34,215 bases of DNA from Gemmatimonadaceae bacterium (GTDB lineage: Bacteria; Gemmatimonadota; Gemmatimonadetes; Gemmatimonadales; Gemmatimonadaceae). Below, piece after piece: positions 127-34,205 of this stretch. The notes under the pieces are model-generated. The model saw only the letters and a program-made list of their open reading frames with translations, did not search any database and was not told where the DNA came from. The translations under genes and the position numbers were made by a program. Where the stretch lies: the NCBI GenBank assembly GCA_035512875.1, contig DATKDD010000085.1:1-34215 (forward strand). Reading direction: 5' to 3'. Position 1 is the first letter of the stretch. Each line of letters begins with the position of its first letter.

Positions 127-1478
127 GCTTTCGTCTGGTGGGATTCGCGACGGCCGCGTTTGCTCTGGCGACCGGCGTGACCGGCGCCGGCGCTCAGGTG
201 CAGCGCATGCTTCCCGGGACATCTCGTGAGGCACCGGACACGGCAACGGTGGATTTCGTGACGGGAGGCGTGCGGGTGATCTTGCGGCGAAACGCCGCCA
301 ACGATGTCGTGGCCGCCAATCTTTACCTGCTGGGCGGCGTCCGACAGGTTACGGACGAGAACGCGGGAGTCGAAGCGTTCGTCCTCGCCGCCTCCGAGCG
401 CGGTACGGCCAGGTTCCCGAAGAACCGCGCCCGCCTGACGGCTGAATCGTTGGGAAGCACCTTCGTCATCGAGCCGACTGAAGACTGGACGATGTTCGGC
501 TTCCGGGCGCTGCGCACGACACTCGACAGCACCTGGGCGTTGTTCGCCGACCGGATCATGTTGCCGACGCTGGACGTAAAGGACGTCGAGCTGATTCGCG
601 CCCAGCTGATGTCCGAGGCCCGCGGGCTTCGTGAGTCGCCCGACGCACTCGTACACCTCCTTGCCGACAGCCTCGCTTTCGCCGGCCATCCCTACGGGCT
701 CTCACCGATAGGCACGGAACGCTCGGTCGCCGGCATGACGAGTGCCGCACTTCGCGCCTATCGTGACTCGCACTTCGTCACATCGCGAATGCTGCTGGTG
801 GTCGTCGGCAACGTGGAACGCGCAGCCATTGAGCGACTGGTCGGCGCCACGCTCGTCAGGTTGCCGCGCGGCTCCTACGAGTGGACCGCACCCGGAGCGC
901 CGCCGGCGCATGATGGAACGCTGACGGTAGTGCAGCGCTCGCTACCGACGAACTATCTCCTTGGCCGGTTCAGCGGCCCGCCCGCTTCGGAGTGGAGCGA
1001 CTATCAGGCATTGCGGGTGGCAATGGCGATTCTGTCCGGACGTTTGTTCAATGAGATCCGGACGCGCCACAACCTCACTTACGCGGTGGACGCGCCGTTC
1101 ACCGACCGGGCCATTTCGTCAGGCGGGATCTACATAACGACCGTGTTCCCCGATTCGGCGCTGACGCTGATTCGCCGGGAGGTGGTACGGCTCCAGACCG
1201 ATCTCGTCGAGCCGTCGTCGCTCGCCAGGCTGGTACAGGGATTCCTCACCGAATATTTCCTGGACAACGAAACGAACGCCGAGCAGGGGGATTTTCTGGC
1301 GCGCGCGGCGCTGTACCGCGGCGATTATTCGGCAGCGGGCGAATTCGTCGAGGAGCTGCGCCGCGTCACACCGGAGGACGTGCGTCGCGTGGCGCGGCAG
1401 TACATCCGGTCGCTACGGTGGGCGTACATCGGTAATCCGGCGCGGATCACGAGCGCCCGGGCGACCGGCCTGGAGTGA
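123..1478 (+). CDS. M16 (pitrilysin/insulinase) family peptidase-like protein, probably a non-catalytic subunit, with signal peptide
   Basis: 451 aa with N-terminal signal-like segment (FATAAFALATGVTGAGA) and two-domain M16 length and layout. At the position of the HXXEH zinc motif the sequence reads GVEAFVLAASERGT, so no His/Glu ligands are present. Confidence 0.8.
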   Translation: MSFRLVGFATAAFALATGVTGAGAQVQRMLPGTSREAPDTATVDFVTGGVRVILRRNAANDVVAANLYLLGGVRQVTDENAGVEAFVLAASERGTARFPKNRARLTAESLGSTFVIEPTEDWTMFGFRALRTTLDSTWALFADRIMLPTLDVKDVELIRAQLMSEARGLRESPDALVHLLADSLAFAGHPYGLSPIGTERSVAGMTSAALRAYRDSHFVTSRMLLVVVGNVERAAIERLVGATLVRLPRGSYEWTAPGAPPAHDGTLTVVQRSLPTNYLLGRFSGPPASEWSDYQALRVAMAILSGRLFNEIRTRHNLTYAVDAPFTDRAISSGGIYITTVFPDSALTLIRREVVRLQTDLVEPSSLARLVQGFLTEYFLDNETNAEQGDFLARAALYRGDYSAAGEFVEELRRVTPEDVRRVARQYIRSLRWAYIGNPARITSARATGLE

Positions 1479-1485
1479 ATCCTAC

Positions 1486-2292
1486 TCAGCCTTCCCCATC
1501 CGTGGATTGGGGTACCGGGTCGTTCACGTCTCGTAAGGCAGGCGCTTCGCTGGGAGCCGGGAGAGGCGCATGATGCGTGGCGAGCGCCCCGTACAACGCC
1601 CCAACTGCGGTGCCGGCGAGCGCCACTCCGCCTATCGGGAGCAGGTCCCATGGCTCGATCAGCGGAATGAGCCACGGGGTAATGGCTCCGAATGCGGCGC
1701 CGAGCACTGCGCCGAGCGCGGCCGAGCTCAGCACCGTTTCATTACCGGCCCAGCGCATCAGGGCCGTGTGCATCACGCTGGCGATGAGCGCCGTGGGAAG
1801 TGCCGCGATGTAGGTTCCAATGAAAGCGAGCAACGCCAGCAGTATGGAAGCGAGCCCATTCCCATCGAGCAGCGCAATTACGAGGTACCCCGCGGCGATG
1901 ACGCCGGCGATCAGCGGCATGACCCTGCGCAACAGCACCAGGGCGCGATCGACATACCCTCTTCCGCGCGCCGGATAGAGCGGCGGCGGGCGGTCGGCGT
2001 CGAGGTAGAGCGCGAGCAACTCCGACACACCGTCCTGAAGCATTGCACGGGCGTGCTCGGGGGTCGTCGGCTCCGAACCCGGCACCTCCACCGGTAGCTC
2101 GATGACGTCGACGAGCTCCCCGTCCCGGTAGAACCAGACCGACGCAGCCGATTCCCGCATCCCGGCGACGTCCGAGCGGTCGGTTATGCCACGGTAGTCT
2201 GCCCGTAGGCGGATGCGCGCGAGCGGCTCCTCATAACGTGTCAGCACTTCCAGCGCCGCCGCGTCGATCCCGGACACCAGATCCGATCCCAT
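1486..2292 (-). CDS. hypothetical membrane protein (soluble N-terminal ~115 aa plus about 4 C-terminal TM helices)
   Basis: 268-aa ORF fills the gap between flanking genes. The C-terminal half is hydrophobic and Ala/Gly/Leu-rich (e.g. LIAGVIAAGYLVIALL). I recognise no family. Confidence 0.55.
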   Translation of the reverse strand: MGSDLVSGIDAAALEVLTRYEEPLARIRLRADYRGITDRSDVAGMRESAASVWFYRDGELVDVIELPVEVPGSEPTTPEHARAMLQDGVSELLALYLDADRPPPLYPARGRGYVDRALVLLRRVMPLIAGVIAAGYLVIALLDGNGLASILLALLAFIGTYIAALPTALIASVMHTALMRWAGNETVLSSAALGAVLGAAFGAITPWLIPLIEPWDLLPIGGVALAGTAVGALYGALATHHAPLPAPSEAPALRDVNDPVPQSTDGEG

Positions 2293-2319: not shown

Positions 2320-2425
2320 GGTAAAGCGGGAATCGGGAAACGGGAACCGCGACGGGACGGGGCTCCGGCCCACCTCTAGCAGCGCTTTTCCCGATTTCCC
2401 ATTTCCTGTTTCCCTTTTCCCGCTC
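2320..2425. repeat. imperfect palindrome built from GGGAAWN units (G-rich arm, then C-rich arm)
   Basis: Left arm AGCGGGAATCGGGAAACGGGAA (2325-2346). Right arm TTCCTGTTTCCCTTTTCCCGCT (2403-2424), whose reverse complement matches the left arm at 19 of 22 positions. It lies just downstream of the pntB stop and upstream of the 1486-2292 gene. Confidence 0.75.
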
Positions 2426-2439: not shown

Positions 2440-3834
2440 TCACACGGCCTTAACCTCGCCTACCAGCTTCGTTATCGAGGACTTTGCATCGCCGAACAGC
2501 ATCGAGGTCTTTGGATTGTAGAACAGGTCGTTCTCGATACCGGCGAAGCCCGGATTCATGCTGCGCTTGAGGACGATGATGCTCTTCGCGTGATCCACGT
2601 TCAGAATCGGCATGCCATAAATCGGGCTCGCGGGATCGGTACGTGCAGCGGGGTTCACCACGTCGTTCGCGCCGATTACGAGCGCGACGTCGGCTCGGTC
2701 GAATTCCGGATTGATGTCATCCATGTCGTACAACTTGTCGTACGGCACATTGGATTCGGCAAGCAGCACGTTCATGTGTCCCGGCATGCGGCCGGCAACC
2801 GGATGAATGGCGTACTTCACCTCTCCACCTCGCTTCTCGATCTGCTCGGCCAGCTCCCGCACGGCGTGCTGCGCCTGCGCCACCGCCATTCCGTAGCCGG
2901 GGACGACGATCACCGAGCGCGCATAGGCCAGTTGAAGCGCGGCGTCTTCGGGGGTGATCGATTTGACCGTGAGCCCTTCGCCGGTGCGCCCGGACGCCAC
3001 CGCGGAGACGCTCCCGAAGGCGCCGAATAGCACGTTGGTCAACGAGCGGTTCATCGCCTTGCACATCAGCTGGCTCAGGATGATGCCTGACGATCCTACC
3101 ATCGCGCCTGCGATCATCAGCACGTGGTTGTTGATCACGAACCCCGTCATTGCCGCGGCGATCCCGGAATAGGAGTTCAACAGCGCGATCACCACCGGCA
3201 TGTCGGCGCCGCCGATCGGCAGCACCAGGAACACGCCAAGCAGCAAGGATATGCCGATCACCACGTAAAAGGGCCACAGCAGTGCCTCGGCCGTCACCAG
3301 CTGGTACGCGCTCAGCGCCAGCACCACCAGTAACGCCAGCGCGTTCACGACCTGAAGCCCTGGAAAGGTGACCGGGCGGCCAGTGACCAACTCCTGCAGC
3401 TTGCCGAAGGCGATCAAACTACCGGTCAGCGTGACTGCTCCGATGAGGACCGCCAGCTGGATCGCGATGCCGTTCATCAACGGCACGTTGCTGCCGACGA
3501 GCTCCGACCGCAGAAACTCGGCGCCGCCGACAAGGAGCGATGCGCCACCACCGAAGCCGTTGAGCAGCGCCACCATTTGCGGCATGGCAGTCATCTTCAC
3601 CGTGCGCGCCATCCAGATGCCTAGCGCCGTACCGACGATGATGCCGGCGATGATGACCTGGTACGAGACGATCTGCCGGTCGAACAAGGTGATGGTGATC
3701 GCGATAAGCATCCCGATCCCCGACAAGCGATTCCCCTGCCGCGCGGTCGCCGGACTGTTCAGCTTCTTGAGGCCGAGGATGAAGAGGACGGCGGCGAGCA
3801 GATAGCTCAGCTCGACCAGGGCGTGAGGTATCAT
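2440..3834 (-). CDS. pntB: NAD(P) transhydrogenase subunit beta
   Basis: 464 aa. Multi-TM N-terminal part plus C-terminal NADP(H) domain with GYGMAVAQAQH and typical PntB N-terminus (LSYLLAAVLFILGLK). 4-bp ATGA overlap with pntAB. Confidence 0.95.
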   Translation of the reverse strand: MIPHALVELSYLLAAVLFILGLKKLNSPATARQGNRLSGIGMLIAITITLFDRQIVSYQVIIAGIIVGTALGIWMARTVKMTAMPQMVALLNGFGGGASLLVGGAEFLRSELVGSNVPLMNGIAIQLAVLIGAVTLTGSLIAFGKLQELVTGRPVTFPGLQVVNALALLVVLALSAYQLVTAEALLWPFYVVIGISLLLGVFLVLPIGGADMPVVIALLNSYSGIAAAMTGFVINNHVLMIAGAMVGSSGIILSQLMCKAMNRSLTNVLFGAFGSVSAVASGRTGEGLTVKSITPEDAALQLAYARSVIVVPGYGMAVAQAQHAVRELAEQIEKRGGEVKYAIHPVAGRMPGHMNVLLAESNVPYDKLYDMDDINPEFDRADVALVIGANDVVNPAARTDPASPIYGMPILNVDHAKSIIVLKRSMNPGFAGIENDLFYNPKTSMLFGDAKSSITKLVGEVKAV

Positions 3835-4146: not shown

Positions 4147-5234
4147 CTCGGGGCGGACAGCAGCATGGCGCTGACGATTTCGTCCTGCTCGTCAAGCGCG
4201 AGCGCGCCCTCGGGCGCCAGGTGCTTGATGAGCGTCTCCAGGTTGCGGGAGAACATCTGGCTCGCGTGAAGCGGCACTGTCGACGGCAGATTCGTCGGTC
4301 CGAGGATCGTCACTCCGTTCACGGCGACCGTCTCGTCAGGTTCGGTCAGCTCGCAGTTGCCGCCCGCCTCGGCGGCGATATCGACGATCACCGAGCCCGG
4401 TCGCATCGAATGAACCATCTCGCCGGTGATCAGCCGGGGCGCCGGCCGCCCGGGAATGAGCGCCGTCGTTATGACGAGATCCTGGTCGGCGATGTGCTTG
4501 CCGATCGTCGCCAGCGTGCGGGAGTGCTCGTCCTCGGTCTGCTGCCGCGCGTAGCCGCCGGCGGTCTCGGCACTCTGCGCCACCGCCTCCGAGCTGACGA
4601 ACGAGGCGCCAAGGCTCTGCACCTGTTCGGCGGCGGCGGGCCGAATGTCGAACGCGGACACGATCGCCCCCAGTCGCCGGGTGGTGGCGATCGCCTGCAG
4701 TCCGGCGACGCCCGCGCCGAGCACGAACGCACGGGCCGGAGCGATCGTACCGGCGGCGGTCGTCAGCATCGGCAGGAATTTCACCAACTGCGCCGCCCCG
4801 ATGAGCGCGGCCTTGTAGCCGGCGACCGTGCTCTGCGACGAGAGCACGTCCATTGACTGCGCCTTCGTTATGCGCGGAACCTTCTCCAGCGACAGCGCCT
4901 TGACGGAGCGCTCTCGCAGGGCGACGCTCAGATCGCCCGCCGTCGCCGGCTGCAGGAGCGCGACCAGCAGGCTTCCTTCCTTCAGCAGCGCAACCTGCTC
5001 CATTGACGGTCGGCGAACCGCAAGCACCAGTTCAGCATCGGCGGCGCTCGCAGCATCCGGGACGATGGTGGCGCCGGCAGCGGCGTACTTCTCGTCGGGG
5101 AATCCGGCCGCGATGCCCGCCGCGCTTTCGACCCGGATCTCGTGACCAGCTTTCGCTAGGCGCGCGACACCGTCGGGAATCAGCGCGACGCGACGCTCTC
5201 CCGCCGCCCGTTCGCGCAGTACGCCAATGCGCAT
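4140..5234 (-). CDS. pntAA: NAD(P) transhydrogenase subunit alpha part 1 (alanine-dehydrogenase-like dI domain)
   Basis: 364 aa with Rossmann motif VLGAGVAGLQAI. AGGAGG lies 9 nt upstream of the ATG on the minus strand. Confidence 0.92.
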   Translation of the reverse strand: MRIGVLRERAAGERRVALIPDGVARLAKAGHEIRVESAAGIAAGFPDEKYAAAGATIVPDAASAADAELVLAVRRPSMEQVALLKEGSLLVALLQPATAGDLSVALRERSVKALSLEKVPRITKAQSMDVLSSQSTVAGYKAALIGAAQLVKFLPMLTTAAGTIAPARAFVLGAGVAGLQAIATTRRLGAIVSAFDIRPAAAEQVQSLGASFVSSEAVAQSAETAGGYARQQTEDEHSRTLATIGKHIADQDLVITTALIPGRPAPRLITGEMVHSMRPGSVIVDIAAEAGGNCELTEPDETVAVNGVTILGPTNLPSTVPLHASQMFSRNLETLIKHLAPEGALALDEQDEIVSAMLLSAPSS

Positions 5235-5502: not shown

Positions 5503-6375
5503 ATGATCGCTCGCATCTGGTTCGGAATTGTGCTCGTACTCGCATCTTTCGTCTCTCGAGGTGCGGCGCAGGAACGCGTGGTGCAGCGCCATGGTTTTTC
5601 CGATGGAGAGGGAAGGCTGATGGCGTTCTACTCCGCGGGGCTCACGTTCTCGCCGGTTGCCGCCCCGCGCGAGCGCGCGCGCGGCGATCTCGCGCTCGGC
5701 CTGGAGCTGGGCTACCTGCCGCCGCTTTCAACCGAGCAGCGCCGTGTCGGTGACAAGCCCGAAGCGACCAATCTCGCGCCGATCTTTCCGCGCCCGCGCA
5801 TCTCCTACGCACTCACCGACCGCGTAACTGTAGAGGCGAGCTGGATCCCACCGATCGAGTTCTTCGACGTGAAGGCCAACCTGGCCAGCCTCGCCCTCTC
5901 GTGGACCGCACCTGCCAGCGGGGCGCTGCGATTCACCCCGCGCCTCGCCGGCACCCTCGGTTCGATTGAAGGGGCAATCACGTGCTCCGAAGAGCTTTTG
6001 AGCGGCTCGATCGATCTGGCCGTGTATTACGCGCTGGTTTGCTACGGCAGGGAGAGCCGCGATGAGTTCTTTCCGCGGCACATACTTGCGGAAGTGACGG
6101 TCGGATGGGATCGCGCGAACGCGGCCGTGGAACCGTATGCGGGGATCGGCGCCCGCCGCGACTGGGCACGGTTCGACATCGGTGTGATACGCGCCGATGG
6201 GTCGCGCGAGCCCGATCACCCGATTCTCGAGCTGCGCGCCCTTCGTCCGTACGGCGTGCTGGGCGCCACGGTTCGCGCGGCAGCACGCGTACGCGCAACG
6301 GCCGAGATGCTCTATGCGCCGGGAAGCATTCTCACACTTCGCCTTCAGGGGACGATCGATGCGATCAGGCGTTAG
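5503..6375 (+). CDS. secreted hypothetical protein, possibly an outer-membrane beta-barrel
   Basis: 290 aa with N-terminal signal peptide (IWFGIVLVLASFVSRGAAQ). It shows alternating hydrophobic beta-like segments. No family recognised. Confidence 0.55.
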   Translation: MIARIWFGIVLVLASFVSRGAAQERVVQRHGFSDGEGRLMAFYSAGLTFSPVAAPRERARGDLALGLELGYLPPLSTEQRRVGDKPEATNLAPIFPRPRISYALTDRVTVEASWIPPIEFFDVKANLASLALSWTAPASGALRFTPRLAGTLGSIEGAITCSEELLSGSIDLAVYYALVCYGRESRDEFFPRHILAEVTVGWDRANAAVEPYAGIGARRDWARFDIGVIRADGSREPDHPILELRALRPYGVLGATVRAAARVRATAEMLYAPGSILTLRLQGTIDAIRR

Positions 6376-6811
6376 GGGTGGGCTCGCGGCGGCCACCCTC
6401 TGCGCTGCCGTGGGCTCGTGCGCCGACTTTTCGGGGACCGAGGATCCCGCGTTCGGACTCCCCGATGTGGTAGTGGCTCAGCCTTCGTTCGCCGCGGACG
6501 TGCAACCGATCCTCAAAATGCGGTGTGCAGTGGGTGGCTGTCACACCCTCGCCTCAGAGCAAGGGGGGCTGGCGCTCGATGCGACTGTGTCGTACGATGA
6601 GTTGGTGGGCGTGCCAGCGACTTCGAGCGCCAATGCGTACCTACGTGTAGCGCCCGGGAACGCGGCGGATTCCTGGCTCATTCGGCGCGTCCGCGCCGAT
6701 CCCGCACTGCGAAACGGTCTAACACGGATGCCGCTCGCCACGCTCCCGCTTACCTCCAACCAGATCAGTACCATCGTGAACTGGATAGATCAGGGGGCGC
6801 CGCGAAACTAG
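6359..6811 (+). CDS. lipoprotein with Planctomycete-cytochrome-c-like (PSCyt1-type) domain
   Basis: I start it at the internal ATG 6359 (MRSGVRGGLAAATLCAAVGSC, lipobox-like). The longer ORF from 6197 would overlap the upstream gene. The domain pattern F..DVQPIL..RC....CH ... GGL.L ... S.L ... MP ... L....I..I..WI..GA matches PSCyt1 as I remember it. Confidence 0.6.
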   Translation: MRSGVRGGLAAATLCAAVGSCADFSGTEDPAFGLPDVVVAQPSFAADVQPILKMRCAVGGCHTLASEQGGLALDATVSYDELVGVPATSSANAYLRVAPGNAADSWLIRRVRADPALRNGLTRMPLATLPLTSNQISTIVNWIDQGAPRN

Positions 6812-6909: not shown

Positions 6910-7326
6910 ATGCACATCGTCTGTATTGCACGACACCCAATGCTGAGCGAGCACATCGCTGCGCTCTGCGTTTCGGCCGGGGGCGTCGGAAACCCCGCGG
7001 TGGGAGCCGACGAAGGGATGCGCCTTGCGCGAGCGGTGCGGCCGGACGCTGTGCTCTGCGAAGTGGATCTGCTCGTTCCGGAGACGATGCGCACCTGGGA
7101 ATCCGATCTCCAGCTGGGCGGCATTCCATTGCTTGCGGTCAGCTTGACCAGACGGCAGAACGAGGTGCCGATGCTCGCCGGTGCCCCTGTATCGGGATAC
7201 CTGTACCTGCCCACGCTCGCCGACAACGACTTGCGCCGCGCGCTTTCCGCCGCCACTCGTGCCACCCCGTCGCCTTCGGATGCCTATCGGTGGAGCAGGA
7301 CCGAGGAGCATTCACCGGTCGCCTGA
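6910..7326 (+). CDS. stand-alone CheY-like receiver-domain protein with degenerate active site
   Basis: Start chosen at ATG 6910 because GGGAGGGG lies directly upstream and the hairpin above sits inside the longer ORF. A (beta-alpha)5-like pattern is visible: HIVCIA / AVLCEVDLLVP / IPLLAVS / GYLYLP. By hand alignment to CheY the phospho-acceptor Asp and the Ser/Thr are kept. The DD pair (here AR) and the conserved Lys (here L) are missing. Confidence 0.5.
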   Translation: MHIVCIARHPMLSEHIAALCVSAGGVGNPAVGADEGMRLARAVRPDAVLCEVDLLVPETMRTWESDLQLGGIPLLAVSLTRRQNEVPMLAGAPVSGYLYLPTLADNDLRRALSAATRATPSPSDAYRWSRTEEHSPVA

Positions 7327-7328
7327 CG

Positions 7329-23796: not shown

Positions 23797-24902
23797 GCCG
23801 GCCCTGCCGCCCTGGCGACGCCGGCACGCAGCACGCGGCGGACTTCGGGAACAGCCGCCGCTACGGCGAGTATGACGACGCCTTGCAACACCTCGACGAA
23901 TTGCTTCGGTACGAGCGCGTTTATCGCCAATCCTCCCTGCGACAGCGTAGCGAAGAACAGCGCCGCGAGCACGATTCCCAGAGGGTGATTGCGTCCGACG
24001 AGGGCCACGGCAATGCCCAGGAACCCGAATCCTCCGGCCAGCCCCTCCTCGTAGTAGTGCTTGTATCCGAGGACGAAGTTGATTCCGCCGAGTCCGGCCA
24101 GCGCGCCGGAGAGCGTGAGCGCCCGGATCCACACGCGTCGAACGCGTATGCCGCCGTACTCCGCTGCGTCCGGCTGCAATCCGGTCGCCCTGAGATCGAA
24201 CCCCATGCGCGAGCGGAACAGCATCCACCACATGCCTAACGCCGCGGCGAGCGCTACGATGAGCGTGAAGTTCGCCGCCGAACCGTGGAACGCCGGAACC
24301 AGCGCGGAGAGTCGTGGCACCTTGCCGGCCGCGATCTCGGGTGTGTGCAGCGTCTCGGGCACATTGAGATGTGAGGCAACCACCCAGTTCAGCATTGCCA
24401 GGACGATGAAATTGAGCATGATCGTGACGATCACTTCGTGGGCCCCGAACCGTGCCTTGAGAACGCCGGGAACCCAGCCGGTAGCGCCACCAGCCAACAT
24501 CGCCGCCCCGATGGCGATCGGGACCGCGAGGAGGGCCGAGGTGCCTGACGGGAGCCACAGTCCGGCAATCGCCGCGGCGAACGCGCCAGCCGCGAGCTGC
24601 CCCTCGGCCCCGATGTTGAAGAGCCCCGCGCGCAATCCTATCGCGACAGCGAGCCCGGTGCAGATGAGCGTCGTCGCCTTGTACAGCACCTGGCCGAACC
24701 CGTAGGCGTTGCCCCACGTGCCCTCGAGCAGCAGTCCGAATACCGCCGCCGGCGATTGCCCGAATGCGAGAATCAACAGGTCGCCTGCTACGAGCGCGAT
24801 GAGCAACGCGACCACCGGCGGCAGCAGCGATTCTGCGAGCGCGGTGCTGGCGCGGGTCGCGCGCGAGGGCGCGATCAGAGAAGCCGCCGGAGGGGCCGTC
24901 AT
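23793..24902 (-). CDS. BMP-family ABC transporter permease 1
   Basis: 369 aa, multi-TM, with typical motif LFNIGAEGQ. ATGA overlaps at both ends. Confidence 0.85.
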   Translation of the reverse strand: MTAPPAASLIAPSRATRASTALAESLLPPVVALLIALVAGDLLILAFGQSPAAVFGLLLEGTWGNAYGFGQVLYKATTLICTGLAVAIGLRAGLFNIGAEGQLAAGAFAAAIAGLWLPSGTSALLAVPIAIGAAMLAGGATGWVPGVLKARFGAHEVIVTIMLNFIVLAMLNWVVASHLNVPETLHTPEIAAGKVPRLSALVPAFHGSAANFTLIVALAAALGMWWMLFRSRMGFDLRATGLQPDAAEYGGIRVRRVWIRALTLSGALAGLGGINFVLGYKHYYEEGLAGGFGFLGIAVALVGRNHPLGIVLAALFFATLSQGGLAINALVPKQFVEVLQGVVILAVAAAVPEVRRVLRAGVARAAGPA

Positions 24903-26488: not shown

Positions 26489-27522
26489 CTCGTGAACGGC
26501 ACGCTGATGTGGCCAGCGATGACCGAGTCGCGGATGCCCTCGACGCGCTCGCGTACCCGATCGGGAATCAGCGATCGGTTGTTATCGTCGTAGACGTAGC
26601 CGACGCCGTTCTCGGCCAGGCCGTAGCTGTAGATCCCGCCGGCGAAGGTTCCCTCCTTCACGCGCCTCACCGCGTCGTACACCACTTCGTCCACCACCTT
26701 CACCATCGACGTGAGGATGTGTCCCGGTGCTGCATCGTACTGATCGGAGTCCACTCCGATCGCCAGTTTGCCCGTCTGTCGCGCCGCCTCGAACACTCCC
26801 AGCCCGGTGGAGCCTGACGCGTGAAAGATGACGTTCACACCCGATCCGTACTGACTCAACGCGAGCTCCTTGCCTTTTCCCGGATTGCGAAAGGCGTCCG
26901 GTGTGACACCCGCGTACTGCGCCACCACCACGCAATCGGGACACACGTGCCTGACGCCGGCGCGGTAGCCTGCCTCGAACTTGTGGATGAGCGGAATGTC
27001 CATTCCCCCGACGAAGCCCACGCGGTTGGAGCCGCCGGCGAGGACGGCAATGGCGCCAACCAGGAAGGAACCCTCCTCTTCGCGGAATCTGAGTGCCGCG
27101 AGGTTTGCCGGCGGCTGGACCGCGTTCCCCTGTTCATCCACCGTGAGCGCGTAATCCACGCCGGCAAAGGGAATTTCGGGGTATTCCCTTGCGAGTTGCG
27201 TAAGGTCGTCGGTGAAGATGAAGCCGATCCCCGCAACCAGCGCCATTCCCTGAGCAGCGAGCAGCCTGAGCCCCGCCTCGCGGTCAGAACCGTCCCCTGG
27301 CTCAATGAACCGCACGGCCACACCCAATTCCCGCTCGGCCCGCTCCGCACCCAGGTACGCGGCATCATTGAACGACTTGTCGCCTCGCCCGCCGACGTCG
27401 AAGACGATCCCCACGGCGAGCCGGTCGTCCGCTTCCTGGCTCACGGCTCCTTCCGGACGGACGAACAGGAGTGCCACATGCGTGGCGAGTAGGAGCGCGG
27501 CGACAATGAGGAGCTTTCGCAT
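26485..27522 (-). CDS. BMP-family (basic membrane protein / PnrA-Med-like) substrate-binding protein
   Basis: Start at ATG 27522 (MRKLLIVAALLLATHVALL). Characteristic GDKSFND motif near the N-terminus of the mature protein. First gene of a 4-gene operon joined by ATGA overlaps. Confidence 0.85.
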   Translation of the reverse strand: MRKLLIVAALLLATHVALLFVRPEGAVSQEADDRLAVGIVFDVGGRGDKSFNDAAYLGAERAERELGVAVRFIEPGDGSDREAGLRLLAAQGMALVAGIGFIFTDDLTQLAREYPEIPFAGVDYALTVDEQGNAVQPPANLAALRFREEEGSFLVGAIAVLAGGSNRVGFVGGMDIPLIHKFEAGYRAGVRHVCPDCVVVAQYAGVTPDAFRNPGKGKELALSQYGSGVNVIFHASGSTGLGVFEAARQTGKLAIGVDSDQYDAAPGHILTSMVKVVDEVVYDAVRRVKEGTFAGGIYSYGLAENGVGYVYDDNNRSLIPDRVRERVEGIRDSVIAGHISVPFTR

Positions 27523-27763: not shown

Positions 27764-29278
27764 ATGCCCACTCGAATCCGGACTCGATTCCTCGTGATTG
27801 GCAGCGGAGTCGCCGGGCTGCATACCGCCTGGCGGGCCTCCGATTCGGGTGAACACGTGGTGGTCCTCACAAAGCGTTCGCTGTTCGACAGCGCCACCGC
27901 CTACGCGCAAGGCGGCATTGCCGCTGCGTTAGGTGCCGGTGACTCGCCGGAGCTGCACTGGCGCGACACGCTGGCGGCCGGCGCGGCGCTCTGCGATGCG
28001 GATGCCGTTGCCGTGCTCGTCACCGAAGGACCGGCGCGAGTGCGCGAGCTCCACGCCGCCGGCGCGGATTTCGACCTCGACCCGAGTGGCGAATTCCTTC
28101 TCGGTCGCGAGGCGGCGCATTCGCAGAATCGCATCGTGCATGCGCACGGTGATCAAACCGGTGCGGAAGTCGCCCGGACGCTCATCGAGCGCGTGCGCGC
28201 CAGCGACCGTGTTCGCGTGCTGGAGCGGGCGCGCGCACTCGACCTGATCATCGATGAAGGGATCTGCGCCGGAGCGCGCGTCAGCGTGGCCGGCCGGCCG
28301 ACCGAGATCATCGCCGATGCGACGGTGCTCGCCGCGGGAGGGTGCGGACAGCTGTTTCGCCATACCACCAATCCGCAGGTGGCGACCGGAGATGGCTTCG
28401 CCATCGCCCATCGCGCGGGCGCGCGGCTCGCCGACATGGAGTTCGTGCAGTTCCACCCCACGGCGCTCGACACCCCGGAGAATCCCCTCTCGCTGATCTC
28501 CGAGGCGGTGCGCGGAGAGGGCGCGATTCTGCGTAACGAGGCCGGCGAGCGATTCATGCTCGGCGTACATGAATCGGCCGAGCTGGCGCCGCGCGATGTA
28601 GTGGCCCGCGAGATCTTCGCCCAGCGTGCCGGTGGTCGCGCCGTCTTTCTCGACGCCACGGCGTTAGGCGATCGCTTCGTCGATCGGTTCCCCGGCATCT
28701 ATGCAATCTGTCTTGCGCGCGGCATCGACCCGCGTCACGACCTGATTCCCGTTACTCCAGCCGCTCATTACATGATGGGCGGAGTGGTGACCGATCTGGT
28801 CGGTCGCTCGAGCATTCCGCGGCTGTACGCCTGTGGCGAAGTGTCGAATACGGGTGTGCACGGCGCAAATCGCCTCGCTTCCAACTCGCTGCTCGAAGGG
28901 CTGGTGTTCGCCGAACGGGTGGCGCGCGACATGCAGACGACCCCGCCCCTGGGCGCTCAGCCGCCCGTGGAGGCGTGGGATGTACCCCCCCTCCCCGACC
29001 GGGGAGCCGCACAGGTCGCGGCTAACGCCGTGCGCGACGCGATGTGGCAATACGCGGGTATCAGCCGCACCGCCGAGGGCCTTCGTGCCTGCCAGCATAT
29101 ACTCGAAGACATCGAGGCGCGACTTCCTCCAGGTGCAACCGAGGAAGTGAACATGGTGCAGGCCGCACGGCTCATTGCCGACGCCGCGCTCCTTCGGGAG
29201 GAATCACGCGGCGGCCACTACCGGAGCGACTATCCGCAGTCGAAGCGGACCTGGGGGGGGCGGAGGATTGTGTGGTGA
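27764..29278 (+). CDS. nadB: L-aspartate oxidase
   Basis: FAD fold VIGSGVAGL, HGANRLASNSLLEG and C-terminal ESRGGHYRSDYP. 504 aa. Confidence 0.93.
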   Translation: MPTRIRTRFLVIGSGVAGLHTAWRASDSGEHVVVLTKRSLFDSATAYAQGGIAAALGAGDSPELHWRDTLAAGAALCDADAVAVLVTEGPARVRELHAAGADFDLDPSGEFLLGREAAHSQNRIVHAHGDQTGAEVARTLIERVRASDRVRVLERARALDLIIDEGICAGARVSVAGRPTEIIADATVLAAGGCGQLFRHTTNPQVATGDGFAIAHRAGARLADMEFVQFHPTALDTPENPLSLISEAVRGEGAILRNEAGERFMLGVHESAELAPRDVVAREIFAQRAGGRAVFLDATALGDRFVDRFPGIYAICLARGIDPRHDLIPVTPAAHYMMGGVVTDLVGRSSIPRLYACGEVSNTGVHGANRLASNSLLEGLVFAERVARDMQTTPPLGAQPPVEAWDVPPLPDRGAAQVAANAVRDAMWQYAGISRTAEGLRACQHILEDIEARLPPGATEEVNMVQAARLIADAALLREESRGGHYRSDYPQSKRTWGGRRIVW

Positions 29279-29281
29279 CTT

Positions 29282-29503: not shown

Positions 29504-30496
29504 GTGTCCCTCCCACTACACGACCAGATTCGCGCGCTGGCTCGAGAGCGCAACGCCGTGATTCTGGCGCACAACTACCAGCGGCCGGAGGTCCAGGATG
29601 TCGCAGACTTTGTCGGCGACTCGCTCGGCCTGTCGCGCGAAGCGGCGAGCACCGGGGCCGAGATCATAGTATTCTGCGGTGTGCACTTTATGGCTGAGAC
29701 CGCGGCCATCCTGTCACCGGAGAAGATGGTGCTTCTCCCCGACATGGCCGCTGGTTGCTCACTAGCCGCGACGATAACCGCCGAACAGCTGCGCGAATGG
29801 AAGGCGGAGCATCCTGGAGCCGTCGTCGTTTCGTACGTGAACACGAGTGCCGAGGTGAAGGCCGAGAGCGACTATTGCTGTACGTCGGGAAATGCGGTCG
29901 AAATCGTGAACTCCATTCGCGCCGATCGTGAGATTCTCTTTCTACCCGACATGTTTCTCGGAGCGCACGTGCGCCGGGTGACCGGCCGGAAGAACATGTT
30001 CGTGTGGATGGGCGAGTGCCACGTTCACGCCGGCATAACGCCGGAGCACATCGGCCAGCAGCGTGCCCTGCACCCTGACGCCGAGTTTCTCGTGCATCCC
30101 GAATGCGGCTGCTCGACCAGCGTGCTCGAGGCGATGTCCGCGGGCGACGTGGAAGCGGAGGGGGTGCAGATCCTCTCGACCGAAGGGATGATCAAGCGGC
30201 CGGGACTCAGTGATGCGGACGAGTTCATCGTTGCCACCGAGGTGGGGATTCTTCACCGGCTGCGCCGCGAGAATCCCGGGCGCACGTTCCACGCGGCCAA
30301 CGATCGTGCCAGCTGCGCGTTCATGAAGGTTACCACGCTTCCAAAGGTGCTTCGCTCAATGAAGCGCCTGGAGCATCACATCACCGTCCCGCCGCACATC
30401 GCCCACCGTGCCCGCCGCGCGATCGAGCGAATGGTGTCGATAGGCGGCTCCAACCCGGCCCCGCTGCTCCCCGGCGGGGTGGATCCCGGAGAATGA
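29504..30496 (+). CDS. nadA: quinolinate synthase
   Basis: GTG start. RNAVILAHNYQRPEVQDVADFVGDSL closely matches the Thermotoga-type NadA N-terminus. Cys ligand contexts present (GCS, ECHVH, CAFM region). Confidence 0.92.
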   Translation: MSLPLHDQIRALARERNAVILAHNYQRPEVQDVADFVGDSLGLSREAASTGAEIIVFCGVHFMAETAAILSPEKMVLLPDMAAGCSLAATITAEQLREWKAEHPGAVVVSYVNTSAEVKAESDYCCTSGNAVEIVNSIRADREILFLPDMFLGAHVRRVTGRKNMFVWMGECHVHAGITPEHIGQQRALHPDAEFLVHPECGCSTSVLEAMSAGDVEAEGVQILSTEGMIKRPGLSDADEFIVATEVGILHRLRRENPGRTFHAANDRASCAFMKVTTLPKVLRSMKRLEHHITVPPHIAHRARRAIERMVSIGGSNPAPLLPGGVDPGE

Positions 30497-31416
30497 CTCG
30501 CTCCTCCAGAACGGTTCGCAACACGCCTAGCGACCAGCAGCTCGTCGTCGATGGCGATCCGCAGCGCTTTCCGCTGCGGCAGGCCCAGCTGGACTCGGTG
30601 GTACGCGCGGCGCTGAAGGAAGACCACGCGTTCGACGACATCACGACCATCGCCACGGTGGCGTCCAATCGCCGGGCGCGCGGGATGATCGTCGCTCGCG
30701 CCCAGGGGATCATAGCCGGAACGCCGCTCGCGCTCGCCGCGTTCCGCATCCTCGATCCGAAAGTCGTCGTGCGCGTCGATGTGACGGATGGCGGGGTTGT
30801 CGAGCCCGGCACGCCGATCATGTTCATTTCCGGTCACGCCCGGTCGCTCCTGTCCAGCGAGCGCGTCGCGCTCAATTTCATGCAGCGACTGTCCGGCATC
30901 GCGACGCTCACGTCGCGTTACGTCAGCAAAGTCGCGGGTACCCGTGCGCGCATCTTCGACACGCGCAAAACGACACCGGGGTGGCGGCTGCTCGAAAAGT
31001 ACGCTGTGAGGTGCGGCGGAGGGATGAACCACCGGCTCGACCTGTCCGATGCGATACTCATCAAGGACAACCACCTGGCCGCACTCGGCGGCAACATCAG
31101 TCTCGCGCTGAAGCGAGTGCGCAGGCTCGCTCCCGAGGGCGCGCGCATCGAAATCGAGTGCGAGCGCATAGAGCAAGTCCGCCAGGCGCTGGACGCTGGT
31201 GCCGATGTGGTGCTGCTGGACAACATGGCGCCGGATGAGCTGCGGGAATGCGTCGCTCTTGCGCAGGGGCGCGCGCTCACCGAGGCGTCAGGCGGAATCA
31301 ACCTTCAAACGGTACGACGCGTCGCCGAGACCGGAGTGGACTGGATCTCCATTGGAGCGTTGACCCACTCGGCCATCTCGCTCGACATCGCACTGGACTT
31401 CGAAACCGTCCGATGA
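30493..31416 (+). CDS. nadC: nicotinate-nucleotide pyrophosphorylase (quinolinate phosphoribosyltransferase)
   Basis: ATGA overlap with nadA. Typical motifs RKTTPGWR, LIKDNHLAA and SGGINL. 307 aa. Confidence 0.92.
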   Translation: MTRSSRTVRNTPSDQQLVVDGDPQRFPLRQAQLDSVVRAALKEDHAFDDITTIATVASNRRARGMIVARAQGIIAGTPLALAAFRILDPKVVVRVDVTDGGVVEPGTPIMFISGHARSLLSSERVALNFMQRLSGIATLTSRYVSKVAGTRARIFDTRKTTPGWRLLEKYAVRCGGGMNHRLDLSDAILIKDNHLAALGGNISLALKRVRRLAPEGARIEIECERIEQVRQALDAGADVVLLDNMAPDELRECVALAQGRALTEASGGINLQTVRRVAETGVDWISIGALTHSAISLDIALDFETVR

Positions 31417-32087
31417 ACGAGATGGCCGCGCTCATCGTAACCGCCGTCATCCTCGGCGCCCAACATACGCTGGCGCCGGATCACGTCGCGGCCGTCTCGG
31501 TGTTTGCCAGCCAGCGCCCGTCATGGCAACGGGCGCTGGGACTGGGTGCGCGGTGGGGGGTCGGACATTCGCTCACGATCGTGCTGCTCGGGAGCGCGCT
31601 CGTCCTGTCCGGGGCCCACATACCGCTGGCCTGGGAATCGTCCATCGAGCGGTTGGTTGGCGTCGCCCTCGTGCTCGTCGGCTGCGCGAGCATCTGGCGC
31701 GCGGCGCGATCGCCGCGCCGGTGGCACGAACACGACGGCGTAAGGCATGCACATCCGCCCATGGTGCGCGGCGCGCGGCACGATCGCGATCATCGCGCAC
31801 TGCTCGGCATCGGCATGCTGCACGGCGTCGCCGGCACCGGGGCCCTCGTCATTGCAATACCGCTCGCCGCGGCAGGCTCACCGGCGCGATCGATGATGTT
31901 TCTCGCCTCTTTCGGCATCGGTACCATCGTCGCGATGTCGGTCTTCGCAGCCGCCGCCGGCGCTGTGTTCGGCCGCGCGGCCCGGCGTTCGGCGGCGATG
32001 GAGCGCGGGTTGGGGTTTGCCGCCGGCGCCGGCAGCGTCCTCGTCGGCGTGTGGTGGTGGGCCGCCGCCGCCGGCGCGACTCCCTAA
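31413..32087 (+). CDS. NicO/UreH-like metal (Ni/Co-type) transporter with His-rich loop
   Basis: ATG 31413 overlaps the nadC stop (ATGA). About 6 TM. HX4DH signature (QHTLAPDH) in the first helix. Central loop RRWHEHDGVRHAHPPMVRGARHDRDH. Confidence 0.7.
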   Translation: MNEMAALIVTAVILGAQHTLAPDHVAAVSVFASQRPSWQRALGLGARWGVGHSLTIVLLGSALVLSGAHIPLAWESSIERLVGVALVLVGCASIWRAARSPRRWHEHDGVRHAHPPMVRGARHDRDHRALLGIGMLHGVAGTGALVIAIPLAAAGSPARSMMFLASFGIGTIVAMSVFAAAAGAVFGRAARRSAAMERGLGFAAGAGSVLVGVWWWAAAAGATP

Positions 32088-32114
32088 CGAGCGCGAGCTC
32101 CATGCCTGCCGGTG

Positions 32115-34205
32115 TCAGCGCAATCCTGCAGCGCGCTCCAACTGCTCGCCCAATTCTTCGGGGTTGGTTACCGGTGCATCGCAGGAATGGCTGCGGCAGA
32201 CATATGCCGTGGCGTGCCCGTCGCGCGCGACCCGTCCCTCGAGGAGGGCCGGCACTTCAGCGTCCGCCGCGCCGCCGGCCAGCACCAGCGCCGGCAGATA
32301 CCGCCGGGCGGTTTCGCGCGCCAATGCCTGAAAGTCCGGCGATTCGGGGTTGCCGGCGATCGCCACTTCGACCGCGCCGAATGCGGCCAGCTCCGCCGCG
32401 CCAAGCAGGTGGCCGAAGGCGGTAGGGTGCCGCGGCATTGGATCGGCCAGCGTTTCACAAACGAACACCGCGCGCCTCCGCAGCTCCGCATCGGCGGTGA
32501 GCTCCGCCACCCGCAGCAGCAGCTCGACGGCGAGCGACGTACCTGACGGAACCGCGTTGTCGGTGATCTCGCGTGGGCGTGTGATCAGCGCCTCGTGATC
32601 GCTGGCGGTGTCGAAGAACGCGTTCGCCTCGTCGTCCCAGAACCACTCTACCGCCGCGTGCGCCAGTGCGACCGCTCGCCGCATCCATTCCGGATCGAAT
32701 GTAAGCTCGTACATCCCTAACGCGGCGAGGCCGGTTGCCGCATGGTCCTCGAGCATGCCGTTGATGCGGGTCACCCCGTCCTTGTGCACCCGAAACACCC
32801 GGTCGTCGCGCACCAATTCCCGAAACAGGAACTCAGCGTTGGCGAGAGCGAGCTCGCGGGCCTGCGGGTGCTCGAGTGTGCGCGCCACTTCGGCCAGCGC
32901 TCGCAGCATCAGCGCGTTCCACCCGGCCAGGATCTTCTCGTCGCGTGCGGGCCAGATCCGCTTGGCACGCGCCGCGTACAACGTCTCGCGAATGCGCACG
33001 AGTTGCTCGTGCAGCACCTCGGCCGGTACTCCCTCGCGGGCGGCAACGACCGCAGCATCGTCGGTGACGTACAGAATGTTCTGCCCCTCGAAGTTTCCAG
33101 TCTTGGTCACGCCGTAGTACGAGATTGCCCGCCTGGCCAGCTCGCGTCCCAGCAGCTCGTGCAGTTCGTCTTCAGTCCAGAGGTAGAACAGCCCTTCTTC
33201 ACCCTCGCTGTCGGCGTCCAGTGAGGCAAAGAAGCCGCCCGACGGCGACGTCATCTCGCGGCCCACCCACGCAACCGTCTCGTCGACAACCCTCCGGATC
33301 TCCGGACTGCCCGTTGCCTGACACAGGTGCGCACCCAAACGGAGCAGCAGCGCGTTGTCGTACAACATCTTCTCGAAATGCGGCACCAGCCATTGCGCAT
33401 CCACCGAGTACCGGGCAAAACCGCCGCCGATCTGATCGTAAATGCCCCCGCGCGCCATCGAGCGAAAGGAATTGGCGGCGATCTCCAGCGCTCGCCCGTT
33501 GCCCGTGCGCCGCCAATGGCGGAGCAGAAAATCCAGCGCCATGGTCTGTGGAAACTTCGGCGCCCCCTCGAAGCCGCCGTAGCGGGAGTCGTAGCGCTGA
33601 GCCAACTCGCGGAACGCCTTCTCGAATAGCGGCGCGTCCAGCGCGCCCGAAGGACCCATTGCCTGCTGCGCTACCTCGTAGATCCTCCGGAGCTGCGTTG
33701 CGCCCTGCTCCACCTCGCTGCGACGGTGTCGATAGGCGTCGGCCACGGCGTTGAGCACGCGCGGAAATGCCGGGAGCCCATGCCGGTCCTCCGGCGGGAA
33801 GTACGTCCCTCCGTAGAACGGCGATCCATCGGGGGTGAGGAACACCGTCATCGGCCACCCACCGTGTCCGGTCAGCGCCTGCACGGCGGCCATGTAAATG
33901 GCGTCGACATCGGGGCGTTCCTCGCGATCCACCTTTACGTTCACGAACAGCCGGTTCATCGTTTCGGCGATCTCCGCGTGCTCGAACGACTCGCGCTCCA
34001 TCACGTGGCACCAGTGACAGGCCGAGTAGCCCACGCTGAGGAGGATCGGTTTCTCTTCCTGCCGCGCGTGCGCGAATGCCTCGTCGCCCCAGGGGAACCA
34101 GTCCACTGGATTGTGCGCGTGCTGCAGCAGGTACGGGCTCGTCTCACCGGCCAACCGGTTGGACGCGCGCCCGGCGCTGGTCGGTCGCTTGTGTGGTGAC
34201 GGCAT
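32115..34205 (-). CDS. YyaL/SSP411-like thioredoxin-domain protein (DUF255 plus six-hairpin glycosidase-like domain)
   Basis: 696 aa. N-terminal [13 protein letters not shown]...[14 protein letters not shown] is the family signature. Confidence 0.88.

Follow-up and report, generated by a model that had tools for sequence, protein, structure and literature searches.

Of all DNA words in the genome of an uncultured Gemmatimonadaceae soil bacterium (G000; a MAG of 2.65 Mb, 83% complete, with 4% contamination), the most over-represented is a short one, K-CGTYAGG-C (reverse complement G-CCTRACG-M). The rare-codon pattern associated with it is, on balance, likely to be a by-product of this genome-wide iterated word, kept by selection or recombination-linked drive. 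The cause acts on DNA, not on translation. Since the word lies on both strands and in every frame, the odd codon use would be a side effect of a reader at the DNA level. The window, that is, the whole stretch of 34,215 nucleotides under analysis, was examined together with the G000 genome, the same-genus set of five genomes (G000–G004), 31 relatives and a phylum survey of 150 sampled genomes. Genes of G000 and of the window were predicted anew, and the codon counts rest on those calls.

Rare codons in the window and the genome

The original prediction held that TTA, TCA and CCT are used in the window almost only where they build the word. For TTA the link stands. Recounting with the new gene calls gave exactly the 14 in-frame TTA codons reported, 11 of them followed by GG: nine as CG-TTA-GG at the same coordinates, two as GG-TTA-GG (17590 and 18573), and three exceptions at 7776 and, on the minus strand, 1536 and 3333. 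Across the genome 8.8% of Leu residues are followed by Gly, close to the assumed one in ten, and at that rate the probability of at least 11 of 14 is 7e-10, beyond chance. For TCA and CCT the claim was too strong, as 9 of 37 TCA codons (7.3% genome-wide) and 9 of 42 CCT codons (17% genome-wide) lie in the word. All nine Ser-Gly copies written xCG-TCA-GG were recovered, including that in the Walker A motif, and the copies written CCT-GAC-G and CCT-AAC-G, put earlier at nine and two, came to eight and one. The preferred codons CTG/CTC, TCG/AGC and CCG/CCC were as described.

Genome-wide, GG comes next in 51% of TTA codons and 34% stand in CG-TTA-GG, values that reach 60% and 40% in high-confidence genes; the CG..GG context thus holds 34–40% of TTA and 1–2% of the other Leu codons. 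Leu is written TTA in 19.8% of cases between ..CG and GG.. versus 1.1% overall, Ser is written TCA in 22.5% between the same flanks versus 5.3%, and Pro is written CCT in 48.7% before GAC-G versus 9.9%. Further effects had escaped the prediction: Arg is AGG in 35.8% of cases after xxC-GTC (5.2% overall) and CGT in 29.7% before CAG-G (11.5% overall), and three copies in the window double as a gene's stop codon (Table 1).

Table 1 Copies of the word and near-motifs in the window
Position	Strand	Form	Gene or context	State in genus genomes
91..97	-	motif	intergenic	
434..440	-	CGC-CTG-ACG	preferred codons	
854..860	+	CTC-GTC-AGG	rare Arg codon AGG	
1117..1123	+	CGTCAGG as TCG-TCA-GGC		
3086..3092	-	CGTCAGG as TCG-TCA-GGC	pntB	
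4334..4340	+	CCT-GAC-GAG on gene's strand	pntA	
6370..6376	+	motif	provides the TAG stop of gene 5578-6372	
7322..7328	-	motif	provides the TGA stop (+ strand) of gene 6940-7323	
10002..10008	-	CCT-AAC-GAA	histidine kinase gene	
10827..10833	+	CGTTAGG as GCG-TTA-GGA	sucA (2-oxoglutarate dehydrogenase E1)	conserved in G004; CTC in G001
10988..10994	-	CCT-GAC-GAA	sucA	
12311..12317	+	CGT-CAG-GCG	minor Arg codon CGT	conserved in G004, G003, G001
12863..12869	-	CCT-GAC-GAA	sucA	conserved in G004, G003, G001
13483..13489	+	CGTTAGG as GCG-TTA-GGC		conserved in G002-G004; CTG in G001
15384..15390	-	CCT-GAC-GAT		conserved in 5/5
17017..17023	-	CCT-GAC-GAA		
17153..17159	+	CGTCAGG as GCG-TCA-GGC	Walker A GASGSGK	Ser is TCG in G003, TCC in G001
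17588..17594	+	near-motif GGTTAGG as CGG-TTA-GGC		
17848..17854	-	CCT-GAC-GGG		G000 only
18571..18577	+	near-motif GGTTAGG as GGG-TTA-GGC		
20527..20533	+	CGTTAGG as GCG-TTA-GGT		conserved in 5/5
21456..21462	+	motif	intergenic	
21929..21935	-	CGTTAGG as CCG-TTA-GGT	MFS transporter gene	conserved in 5/5
22472..22478	-	CGTTAGG as GCG-TTA-GGC		conserved in G002-G004
23257..23263	-	GGC-GTC-AGG		
23729..23735	-	CGTCAGG as GCG-TCA-GGC		
24235..24241	-	CGTTAGG as GCG-TTA-GGC		G000 only; CTA in G004, G002; ATA in G003
24544..24550	-	CGTCAGG as CCG-TCA-GGC		
25246..25252	+	CCT-GAC-GCG on gene's strand		
25488..25494	-	CGTCAGG as TCG-TCA-GGC		
26230..26236	-	CGT-CAG-GCG		
26813..26819	-	CGTCAGG as GCG-TCA-GGC		
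26950..26956	-	GGC-GTC-AGG		
27927..27933	+	CGTTAGG as GCG-TTA-GGT	nadB	
28662..28668	+	CGTTAGG as GCG-TTA-GGC	nadB	
30074..30080	-	CCT-GAC-GCC	nadA	
31286..31292	+	CGTCAGG as GCG-TCA-GGC	nadC	
32083..32089	-	motif	provides the TAA stop (+ strand) of gene 31413-32084	
32542..32548	-	CGTCAGG as CCG-TCA-GGT		
32716..32722	-	CGTTAGG as GCG-TTA-GGG		

Abundance, frames and spacing

The core CGTYAGG has about 2,500 copies in G000, roughly one per kb, and 38 in the window versus 10.1 +/- 3.6 in shuffles. CGTTAGG (7.7x Markov-2 expectation) and CGTCAGG (3.7x) are the top two over-represented 7-mers, and the top 9-mer, GCCTGACGA, occurs 806 times at 17x expectation. Measured against synonymous-codon shuffles within genes, CGTTAGG and CGTCAGG were enriched 11.5x and 3.9x. 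Near-motif words NGTTAGG are enriched 2-3x. Other TA-containing words (CGTTATG, CGATAGG and CGTAATG) are likewise enriched and conserved, and the reading of a single word does not explain them.

Enrichment was observed in all five stop-free frames (1.4 to 21x) and in intergenic DNA (O/E 2.4-9.8), and the excess was alike in the two orientations (+771 sense and +732 antisense, summed over frames). Copies are spread almost uniformly along genes, with the first tenth slightly low. Gaps below 100 bp made up 6.3% in G000 versus 11.2% expected (z = -7.7) and 7.2% in G012, of a sister genus, versus 18.4% (z = -7.1); three control words were spaced at random. Copy counts per gene were under-dispersed (chi2/df 0.83).

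Distribution and conservation among relatives

The five genus genomes hold 806-1,952 copies of GCCTGACGA, versus 20-80 in most relatives, and G012 holds 9,004 copies of CGTTAGG, versus 10-130 in word-poor relatives. The word of G012, KCGTTAGGC, shares its flanks with KCGTCAGGC of G000 and is a variant of it. In the phylum survey, enrichment was found in only about six more genera within the family and in one to three of a sister family. TTA stands at 0.09-0.22 per 1,000 codons in the word-poor genomes G020 and G006, 1.2 in G000 and G004 and 4.3 in G012. Word-poor relatives of similar GC use TTA 5-13x less than G000 and 20-50x less than G012, without the GG bias, which was seen in word-rich genomes only. 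Its absence from G006 and G020, of similar GC, and from about 140 of the 150 sampled phylum genomes indicates that it is not a general high-GC effect.

G000 and G004 are 84% identical overall, and 65% identical if third codon positions are taken by themselves. Conservation of whole words was 58% and 72.5%, versus 30% both for neighbours with one mismatch and for 7-mers as a whole, and CCTAACG was the best-conserved 7-mer of all. Conservation inside the word exceeded that outside for TTA (22 of 25, 88%, versus 9 of 40, 23%), TCA (13 of 15 versus 29 of 131) and CCT (42 of 55 versus 61 of 189), so that rare codons inside the word were kept across 16% divergence; preferred codons were conserved alike inside and outside.

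Discussion

The genome-wide tally and the relatives agree with the core of the original prediction, that a DNA word rather than codon drift lies behind TTA-GG. We propose that a force on double-stranded DNA would favour K-CGTYAGG-C wherever the protein sequence permits. The landing frame alone would then set the rare codon: TTA or TCA from xCG-TYA-GG, CCT from CCT-RAC-G, AGG from xxC-GTY-AGG and CGT from CGT-CAG-G. The needed amino acid (Ser or Leu, Asp or Asn) would dictate the middle C or T, and the benefit would level off once copies lie a few hundred bases apart.

What that force might be was left in the prediction between selection and a context-dependent mutation or repair process. A bias of the latter kind, very-short-patch-like or a methylation-linked hotspot, that makes and protects the word and leaves the codons passive, seems unlikely to us. 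It would suit copies in all frames and in intergenic DNA; enrichment and conservation are correlated across 7-mers generally, as a mutational equilibrium or context-dependent sink would predict, and deamination could in principle turn the C form into the T form. However, the two forms interchange at just 2 of 110 sites shared by G000 and G004, differences strike all seven positions, transversions included, none of the one-mismatch precursors shows strong depletion (every neighbour is slightly low, at 0.5-1.1), and a mutational process does not predict evener-than-random spacing. Vsr and a C5-methylase are present in G000 and were not found in G001-G004 or G012, and the search for N6/N4 methylases (PF01555) gave no match in G000, G001, G003 or G004. 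The spacing, the lack of a single depleted precursor, the spread of changes and the lack of co-occurrence with Vsr or the tested methylase families make us lean towards selection or drive, which is probably the force at work. Dcm/Vsr very-short-patch repair in E. coli (CCWGG) similarly acts at the DNA level and shifts word frequencies in all frames, but here no T:G precursor is depleted, the presence of Vsr and C5-methylase does not match that of the word, and the effect is far stronger, with evenly spaced copies. It is distinctly improbable that the word would be the site of a methyltransferase or restriction-like enzyme and serve as a methylated self-mark, a reading that overlaps with the favoured one if an uptake or recombination system reads the mark. 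CCTRAC resembles the MmeI-family site TCCRAC, and CCTNACG the Bpu10I site CCTNAGC. An Eco57I/MmeI-type methylase of ~1,050 aa, followed by an SNF2/ResIII helicase gene, is encoded at C96 of G000, with homologues in G001, G004, G012 and some other word-rich genomes. Yet nearly every word-poor relative has the same methylase, identity to the G000 copy follows phylogeny and not word status (50-56% across the family in word-rich and word-poor genomes; 40% in word-rich G030), and restriction sites are normally avoided rather than enriched.

That the chromosome is seeded with integron integrase sites, the T form being a recombination box, is very improbable. The T form contains GTTAGGC/GCCTAAC exactly, matching the attC/attI core GTTRRRY (classically GTTAGGC) and inverse core RYYYAAC, integrases are common in the order, and G000 carries at C356 an integron integrase scoring 439 bits, accompanied by two boxes that resemble an attC pair (ACCTAAC at 388, GTTAGGC at 477). 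But about 74% of copies in G000 have the C form GTCAGGC, which violates the conserved GTT, and they are single boxes, unlike the paired R''/R' hairpins of attC; close pairs are depleted, so copies do not form such hairpins. The integrase, present in 20 of 31 relatives, is unrelated to word richness: many integrase-positive genomes are word-poor, word-rich G012 has only a frameshifted one, and nothing exceeded the family cut-off in G008 or G018. A translational cause (a codon-pair preference, bldA-like regulation by way of a scarce tRNA-Leu(UAA), pausing or frameshifting programmed at TTA-GGN, or the off-frame stops offered by the prediction) is hardly tenable. TTA is the rarest sense codon at 1.2 per 1,000, as in Streptomyces bldA regulation in a high-GC genome, and TTAGG, CCTGAC and CCTAAC contain out-of-frame stops. 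The 40 tRNAs recovered from the incomplete MAG include no tRNA-Leu(UAA), but Ile and Cys tRNAs are missing as well, so this absence carries no information. Strand symmetry and intergenic enrichment already contradict a translational cause, and near-uniform placement along genes tells against pausing or frameshifting; sense CGTCAGG, stop-free in every frame, is still enriched 2.7-5.8x, contrary to the off-frame-stop option. Unlike bldA-regulated codons, TTA here is set by the CG..GG flanks, lies not in a regulon but in such housekeeping genes as sucA, nadB and those of ABC transporters, and is mirrored antisense and in intergenic DNA. Finally, it is scarcely credible that the word acts as a polar signal for chromosome handling, like Chi (RecBCD/AddAB) or KOPS (FtsK). 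These are comparably short, asymmetric and over-represented, but the word has no strand polarity: orientation was not heterogeneous among contigs (chi2 389.6 on 380 df, versus a computed ~2.3 per contig for a 75:25 polar word), and it correlated only weakly with GC skew (rho -0.20), not more so than with gene direction (rho -0.26).

The favoured reading, a DNA word kept by selection or drive, has its closest known parallels in the cyanobacterial HIP1 and in the uptake sequences of Pasteurellaceae (USS) and Neisseriaceae (DUS), which its upkeep would resemble. HIP1 (GCGATCGC) is likewise hyper-abundant in coding and non-coding DNA, non-randomly spaced and conserved beyond codon preference; its codons are better conserved inside than outside, the same outcome as here, and its function has long been unknown (PMC5861425). 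HIP1 is reported to be tied to orphan methylases and to help transformation in a methylation-dependent manner (PMC4390886; bioRxiv 10.1101/2024.09.10.611283). HIP1 is a palindromic octamer whose core two orphan methylases recognise, whereas the word here is asymmetric and none of the tested methylases tracks it.

USS and DUS are also short (7-10 bp), non-palindromic, present at ~1/kb in both orientations, several coding frames and intergenic DNA, evenly spaced, conserved at orthologous places and variable between genera, with codon and peptide use shifted. Unlike them, the word forms no terminator-like inverted pairs, its host is a gemmatimonadote rather than a proteobacterium, and its enrichment is weaker (4-17x in G000, 25-70x in G012). 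USS and DUS enrichment is higher than these values. To our knowledge, natural transformation has not been documented in Gemmatimonadota. ComEC, DprA and the pilin family of the window do not track the word, the first two being present in word-rich and word-poor genomes and the last found everywhere, and no ComEA-type match was obtained in G000 or G004, both incomplete. Codon and tripeptide use are both altered by uptake sequences, whose drive is of about the same strength as selection on codons (PMC2817400). By analogy, and tentatively, the word may possibly serve to mark the bacterium's own DNA for uptake or recombination.

Rare codons in the window and across the genome

The window is the longest contig of a 2.65-Mb, 407-contig Gemmatimonadaceae MAG (G000; 65% GC, completeness 83%, contamination 4%), whose nearest named relatives are uncultured Gemmatimonadaceae MAGs, and its genes are ordinary housekeeping genes (pntAB, sucA, two ABC transporters, nadBAC and a type IV pilin). 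Using our own iterated codon-log-odds model, we called 2,332 genes in G000, covering 86% of the genome. The original prediction was that the codons TTA, TCA and CCT occur in the window almost only where they build a motif, here termed the word: K-CGTYAGG-C (reverse complement G-CCTRACG-M), with a C form, CGTCAGG, and a T form, CGTTAGG. Its list of 14 in-frame TTA codons was exact, comprising nine in CG-TTA-GG, two in GG-TTA-GG and three exceptions. The link between TTA and a following GG is beyond chance: Leu is followed by Gly in 8.8% of cases, so 11 of 14 has P = 7e-10. The claim of near-exclusive use holds for TTA; it fails for TCA (9 of 37 codons in the window and 7% genome-wide) and for CCT (9 of 42 and 17%). 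In total, CGTYAGG occurs 38 times in the window, against 10.1 +/- 3.6 in shuffles. By reading frame, the copies include nine xCG-TTA-GG, nine xCG-TCA-GG (the predicted Walker A copy is confirmed among them), eight CCT-GAC-G, one CCT-AAC-G, three xxC-GTC-AGG, two CGT-CAG-G and one xxC-CTG-ACG. Five of the 38 lie between genes or at their edges; three of these five supply stop codons.

The same preference extends to the whole of G000. A genome-wide tally, which the original prediction had put forward as a check, found GG directly after TTA in 51% of cases and the full CG-TTA-GG context in 34% (60% and 40%, respectively, in high-scoring genes), compared with 1–2% for other Leu codons. Whatever the frame, a rare codon is used several times as often as usual where it completes the word: TTA rises from 1.1% to 19.8% of Leu codons, TCA from 5.3% to 22.5% of Ser codons, CCT from 9.9% to 48.7% of Pro codons, and AGG and CGT from 5.2% to 35.8% and from 11.5% to 29.7% of Arg codons. 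We also looked for a tRNA-Leu(UAA) gene, the presence of which had been raised as a question; it was not found among the 40 tRNAs of G000, a result that is uninformative because the tRNA set of the MAG is incomplete.

Other repeated and unusual features were seen in G000. REP-like words built of GGGAAWN / GGAATTAGG units are 20–90 times over expectation genome-wide, in agreement with the GGGAAWN palindromes noted in the original prediction. Sister genomes have REP-like units of their own, GGGAATCGGGAAT in a second genome of the genus (G004) and GATAGGGGATAG and AAAGGGGTCAGAGT in a genome of a sister genus (G012). G000 has two tRNA-SeC genes, and two genes of the window give weak matches to families linked to selenium use.

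The word acts at the level of DNA

No 7-mers of G000 are more over-represented than CGTTAGG and CGTCAGG. The top 9-mer, GCCTGACGA/TCGTCAGGC, has 806 copies, 17 times the Markov-2 expectation, divided almost equally between forward (397) and reverse (409) orientations. There are 2,536 copies of the core, which is preferentially flanked by T or G before and C after. When synonymous codons were shuffled within each gene, which preserves both protein and codon usage, CGTTAGG and CGTCAGG were still 11.5 and 3.9 times enriched. The word is enriched in all stop-free frames, with an excess of +771 on the sense and +732 on the antisense strand (summed per-frame rows); it is also 2.4 to 9.8 times enriched in intergenic DNA relative to the composition of that DNA, and its copies are near-uniform in position along genes. 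Translation-level causes are ruled out by this equality of the strands, by the enrichment in every frame and outside genes, and by the nearly even placement along genes. Selection for off-frame stops, one of the causes proposed in the original prediction, also fails: sense-strand CGTCAGG contains no stop in any frame yet is enriched, and off-frame stops are therefore not the cause. Regulation through TTA of the bldA type was rejected as well, the TTA codons lying in sucA, nadB and transporter genes, bound to their DNA context and not confined to a regulon. We conclude that the effect is on DNA and not on translation, and that TTA use in this genome is a clean, quantified case of codon use set by a signal on double-stranded DNA.

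Several related words, CGTTATG, CGATAGG/GATAGGC and CGTAATG, are also 2–6 times enriched genome-wide, and CGTTATG and GATAGGC are 54–57% conserved between G000 and G004. These may reflect a second effect, or they may be variants of the word that are tolerated despite one mismatch. Words with CCTGG or GGCC were the most under-represented relative to synonymous shuffles.

Spacing and conservation of the word

The spacing of the word is more even than chance. Gaps shorter than 100 bp make up 6.3% of those in G000, against 11.2% expected (z = -7.7), and 7.2% of those in G012, against 18.4% expected (z = -7.1); three abundant control words were randomly spaced. Counts per gene in G000 are likewise under-dispersed. 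Orientation among the contigs of G000 is random (chi2 389.6 on 380 df), with no bias following replication, and the word is therefore not a polar motif of the Chi or KOPS kind. Some stretches of 5–15 kb on which 5–15 copies would be expected are free of the word (C317, C141, C151, C121 and C193 of G000; C4, locus L099, of G004). Their genes have ordinary accessory functions, and we found no obvious mobile elements among the genes of word-poor contigs. These stretches may be recent acquisitions or binning contamination.

We examined conservation in 160 kb of G004 aligned to G000, with 84% identity overall and 65% at third codon positions. Whole words were kept at 58% of C-form and 72.5% of T-form sites, compared with 30% for one-mismatch neighbours and for all 7-mers; CCTAACG was the best-conserved 7-mer of all. 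Rare codons were kept far more often inside the word than outside it (22/25 versus 9/40 for TTA, 13/15 versus 29/131 for TCA, and 42/55 versus 61/189 for CCT), whereas preferred codons showed no such difference. Gains and losses are balanced, with 64 copies private to G000 and 58 to G004, and single differences fall at all seven positions, transversions included. The C and T forms were interchanged at just 2 of 110 shared sites, as expected if the amino acid determines which of the two is used.

Variant forms in related lineages

GCCTGACGA is present in 806–1,952 copies in the five genomes of the genus of G000 and in a few hundred copies in some other genera, and stands at a background of 20–80 copies in about 20 relatives. 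In G012, of the same family, it is CGTTAGG that abounds, with 9,004 copies (1.8 per kb) compared with 10–130 in word-poor relatives. The two genomes have variants of one word: KCGTTAGGC, the extended form in G012, has flanks identical to those in G000. Across lineages the flanks are shared and the prevailing form varies, being the C form in G013 and the genus of G000 and the T form in G012, G008 and G018. A locus of the public Gemmatimonadaceae MAG SMAG_U4522 (L029; DASYRX010000218.1) has 17 copies in 8.5 kb, 14 of them in the T form, which makes SMAG_U4522 a T-form genome as G012 is. In a set of 150 genomes of the phylum, enrichment was confined to some six additional genera of this family and one to three genomes of a sister family. 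Word-poor tallies include an unpublished genome, G011, on which no claim depends.

The original prediction called for a comparison with relatives of similar GC, and this bore it out. In two such word-poor genomes, G006 and G020, TTA accounts for 0.22 and 0.09 of every 1,000 codons and shows no GG bias, compared with 1.2 in G000 and G004 and 4.3 in G012, in each of which 34–43% of TTA codons lie in CG-TTA-GG. The bias is therefore no general codon-pair effect of high GC, and the word inflates TTA use 5- to 50-fold. No other hyper-words were found in G006 and G020, which argues against an order-wide habit taking other forms. A small sample of G020 (L141–L144, 73 kb) has GCTGGTGG, the E. coli Chi word, at 3.7 times and TGCTGGTGG at 9 times expectation, excesses that may come from codon usage.

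Candidate determinants

For 31 relatives, we asked whether candidate determinants co-occur with an abundance of the word. Neither C5-methylases nor N6/N4-methylases tracked it, and nor did Vsr, integron integrases or the type IV pilin of the window, pilins being ubiquitous. An Eco57I/MmeI-type methylase of G000 likewise failed to track it, whether by presence or by similarity to the G000 copy. This methylase is 85% identical within the genus, 50–56% within the family and 40–42% in other families, and has been inherited vertically through the whole order, which is unusual for a restriction-like gene. In G000, Vsr with a C5-methylase occurs on a single contig, and the pair was not found in the four further genomes of the genus (61–94% complete) or in G012 (92% complete). 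Very-short-patch bias through Vsr/Dcm was rejected, as the enzymes do not co-occur with the word and a depleted precursor word is missing.

An integron core site was a further candidate identity, as CGTTAGGC contains the core site GTTAGGC and integrases above the family cut-off are present in 20 of 31 genomes of the order. This reading fails: the dominant C form in G000 breaks the conserved GTT, and the integrase does not follow word richness. Moreover, attC sites pair R''/R' boxes as an imperfect palindrome 50–150 bp apart together with an integrase, whereas close pairs of the word are depleted. G000 carries an integron integrase gene and an attC-like pair on one contig.

Coordinates of features in the window and on other contigs of G000
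Contig	Position	Feature
Window	10829, 13485, 20529, 27929, 28664; minus strand 21933, 22476, 24239, 32720	TTA codons in CG-TTA-GG
Window	17590, 18573	TTA codons in GG-TTA-GG
Window	7776; minus strand 1536, 3333	Other in-frame TTA codons
Window	6370-6376	Word supplying stop codon, CGT-TAG
Window	7322-7328	Word supplying stop codon, CC-TGA-CG
Window	32083-32089	Word supplying stop codon, CC-TAA-CG
Window	2325-2424	REP-like words
Window	4119-4146	REP-like words
Window	29282-29474	REP-like words
Window	19902-21128	Weak match, SelD-associated oxidoreductase domain
Window	32118-34154	Weak match, TsoB-like rhodanese/DsbD
C131 (L158)	2918-5396	C5-cytosine methylase, unknown 276-aa ORF and Vsr endonuclease in a row
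C96 (L159)	2-2749	Eco57I/MmeI-type N6-adenine methylase (~1,050 aa)
C96 (L159)	2737-5025	Overlapping SNF2/ResIII helicase gene
C356 (L156)	5796-6740	Integron integrase, 439 bits vs TIGR02249
C356	388-483	attC-like pair ACCTAAC...GTTAGGC, 89 bp apart

Origin and meaning of the word

The original prediction had offered either a DNA word kept at the cost of codon optimality or a process of mutation or repair that creates it. A pure mutation or repair bias would agree with the correlation between enrichment and conservation that holds for words in general. It is the less likely explanation because none of the possible precursor words is singled out for depletion, the differences between copies involve every position and type of change, and even spacing is not what it predicts. 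Maintenance of the word itself is the best supported of the options proposed. The data fit a force that acts on double-stranded DNA, promotes about one copy in every few hundred bases and outweighs codon preference. Precedents exist: uptake sequences alter the use of codons and tripeptides through a drive similar in strength to codon selection (PMC2817400), and codons are more conserved inside HIP1 than outside it (PMC5861425).

The word belongs to a known class of genome-wide iterated words, of which it is a new variant. It resembles USS/DUS in its copies in the thousands, genome-wide and in both orientations, in genes and spacers, with even spacing and lineage-specific variant forms. The DUS of Neisseria has a sequence-specific receptor, ComP. 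The uptake genes ComEC and DprA are present in word-rich and word-poor genomes alike and do not discriminate between them; neither G000 nor G004, both incomplete genomes, yielded a match to ComEA. Like HIP1, the word and its codons are conserved beyond codon preference. Unlike HIP1, a palindrome with sites for cognate orphan methylases, it is asymmetric, and no C5, N6/N4 or Eco57I-type methylase tracks it. Our literature search found nothing relevant on the word or on uptake sequences in Gemmatimonadota. We tentatively suggest, as a possibility that we consider rather doubtful, that K-CGTYAGG-C serves Gemmatimonadaceae as a putative self-recognition mark in DNA uptake or homologous exchange.

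Codons imposed by the word would mislead codon-usage models, expression predictors and gene finders. The word, patchy, conserved and evenly spaced in an under-studied soil phylum, shares its behaviour with the uptake sequences of Neisseria and Haemophilus and the HIP1 of cyanobacteria. It also offers a testable handle, a defined 8–9 bp word (GCCTGACGA, GCCTAACG) with sister genera rich and poor in it whose genomes can be compared, and raises the question of whether members of the Gemmatimonadaceae use transformation to exchange DNA or have another means of marking their own. If self-recognition is indeed its role, this would be the first uptake-sequence-like system outside Proteobacteria, with C/T variants of its centre at the level of the genus and a signal strong enough to make the rarest codon 5 to 50 times as common.
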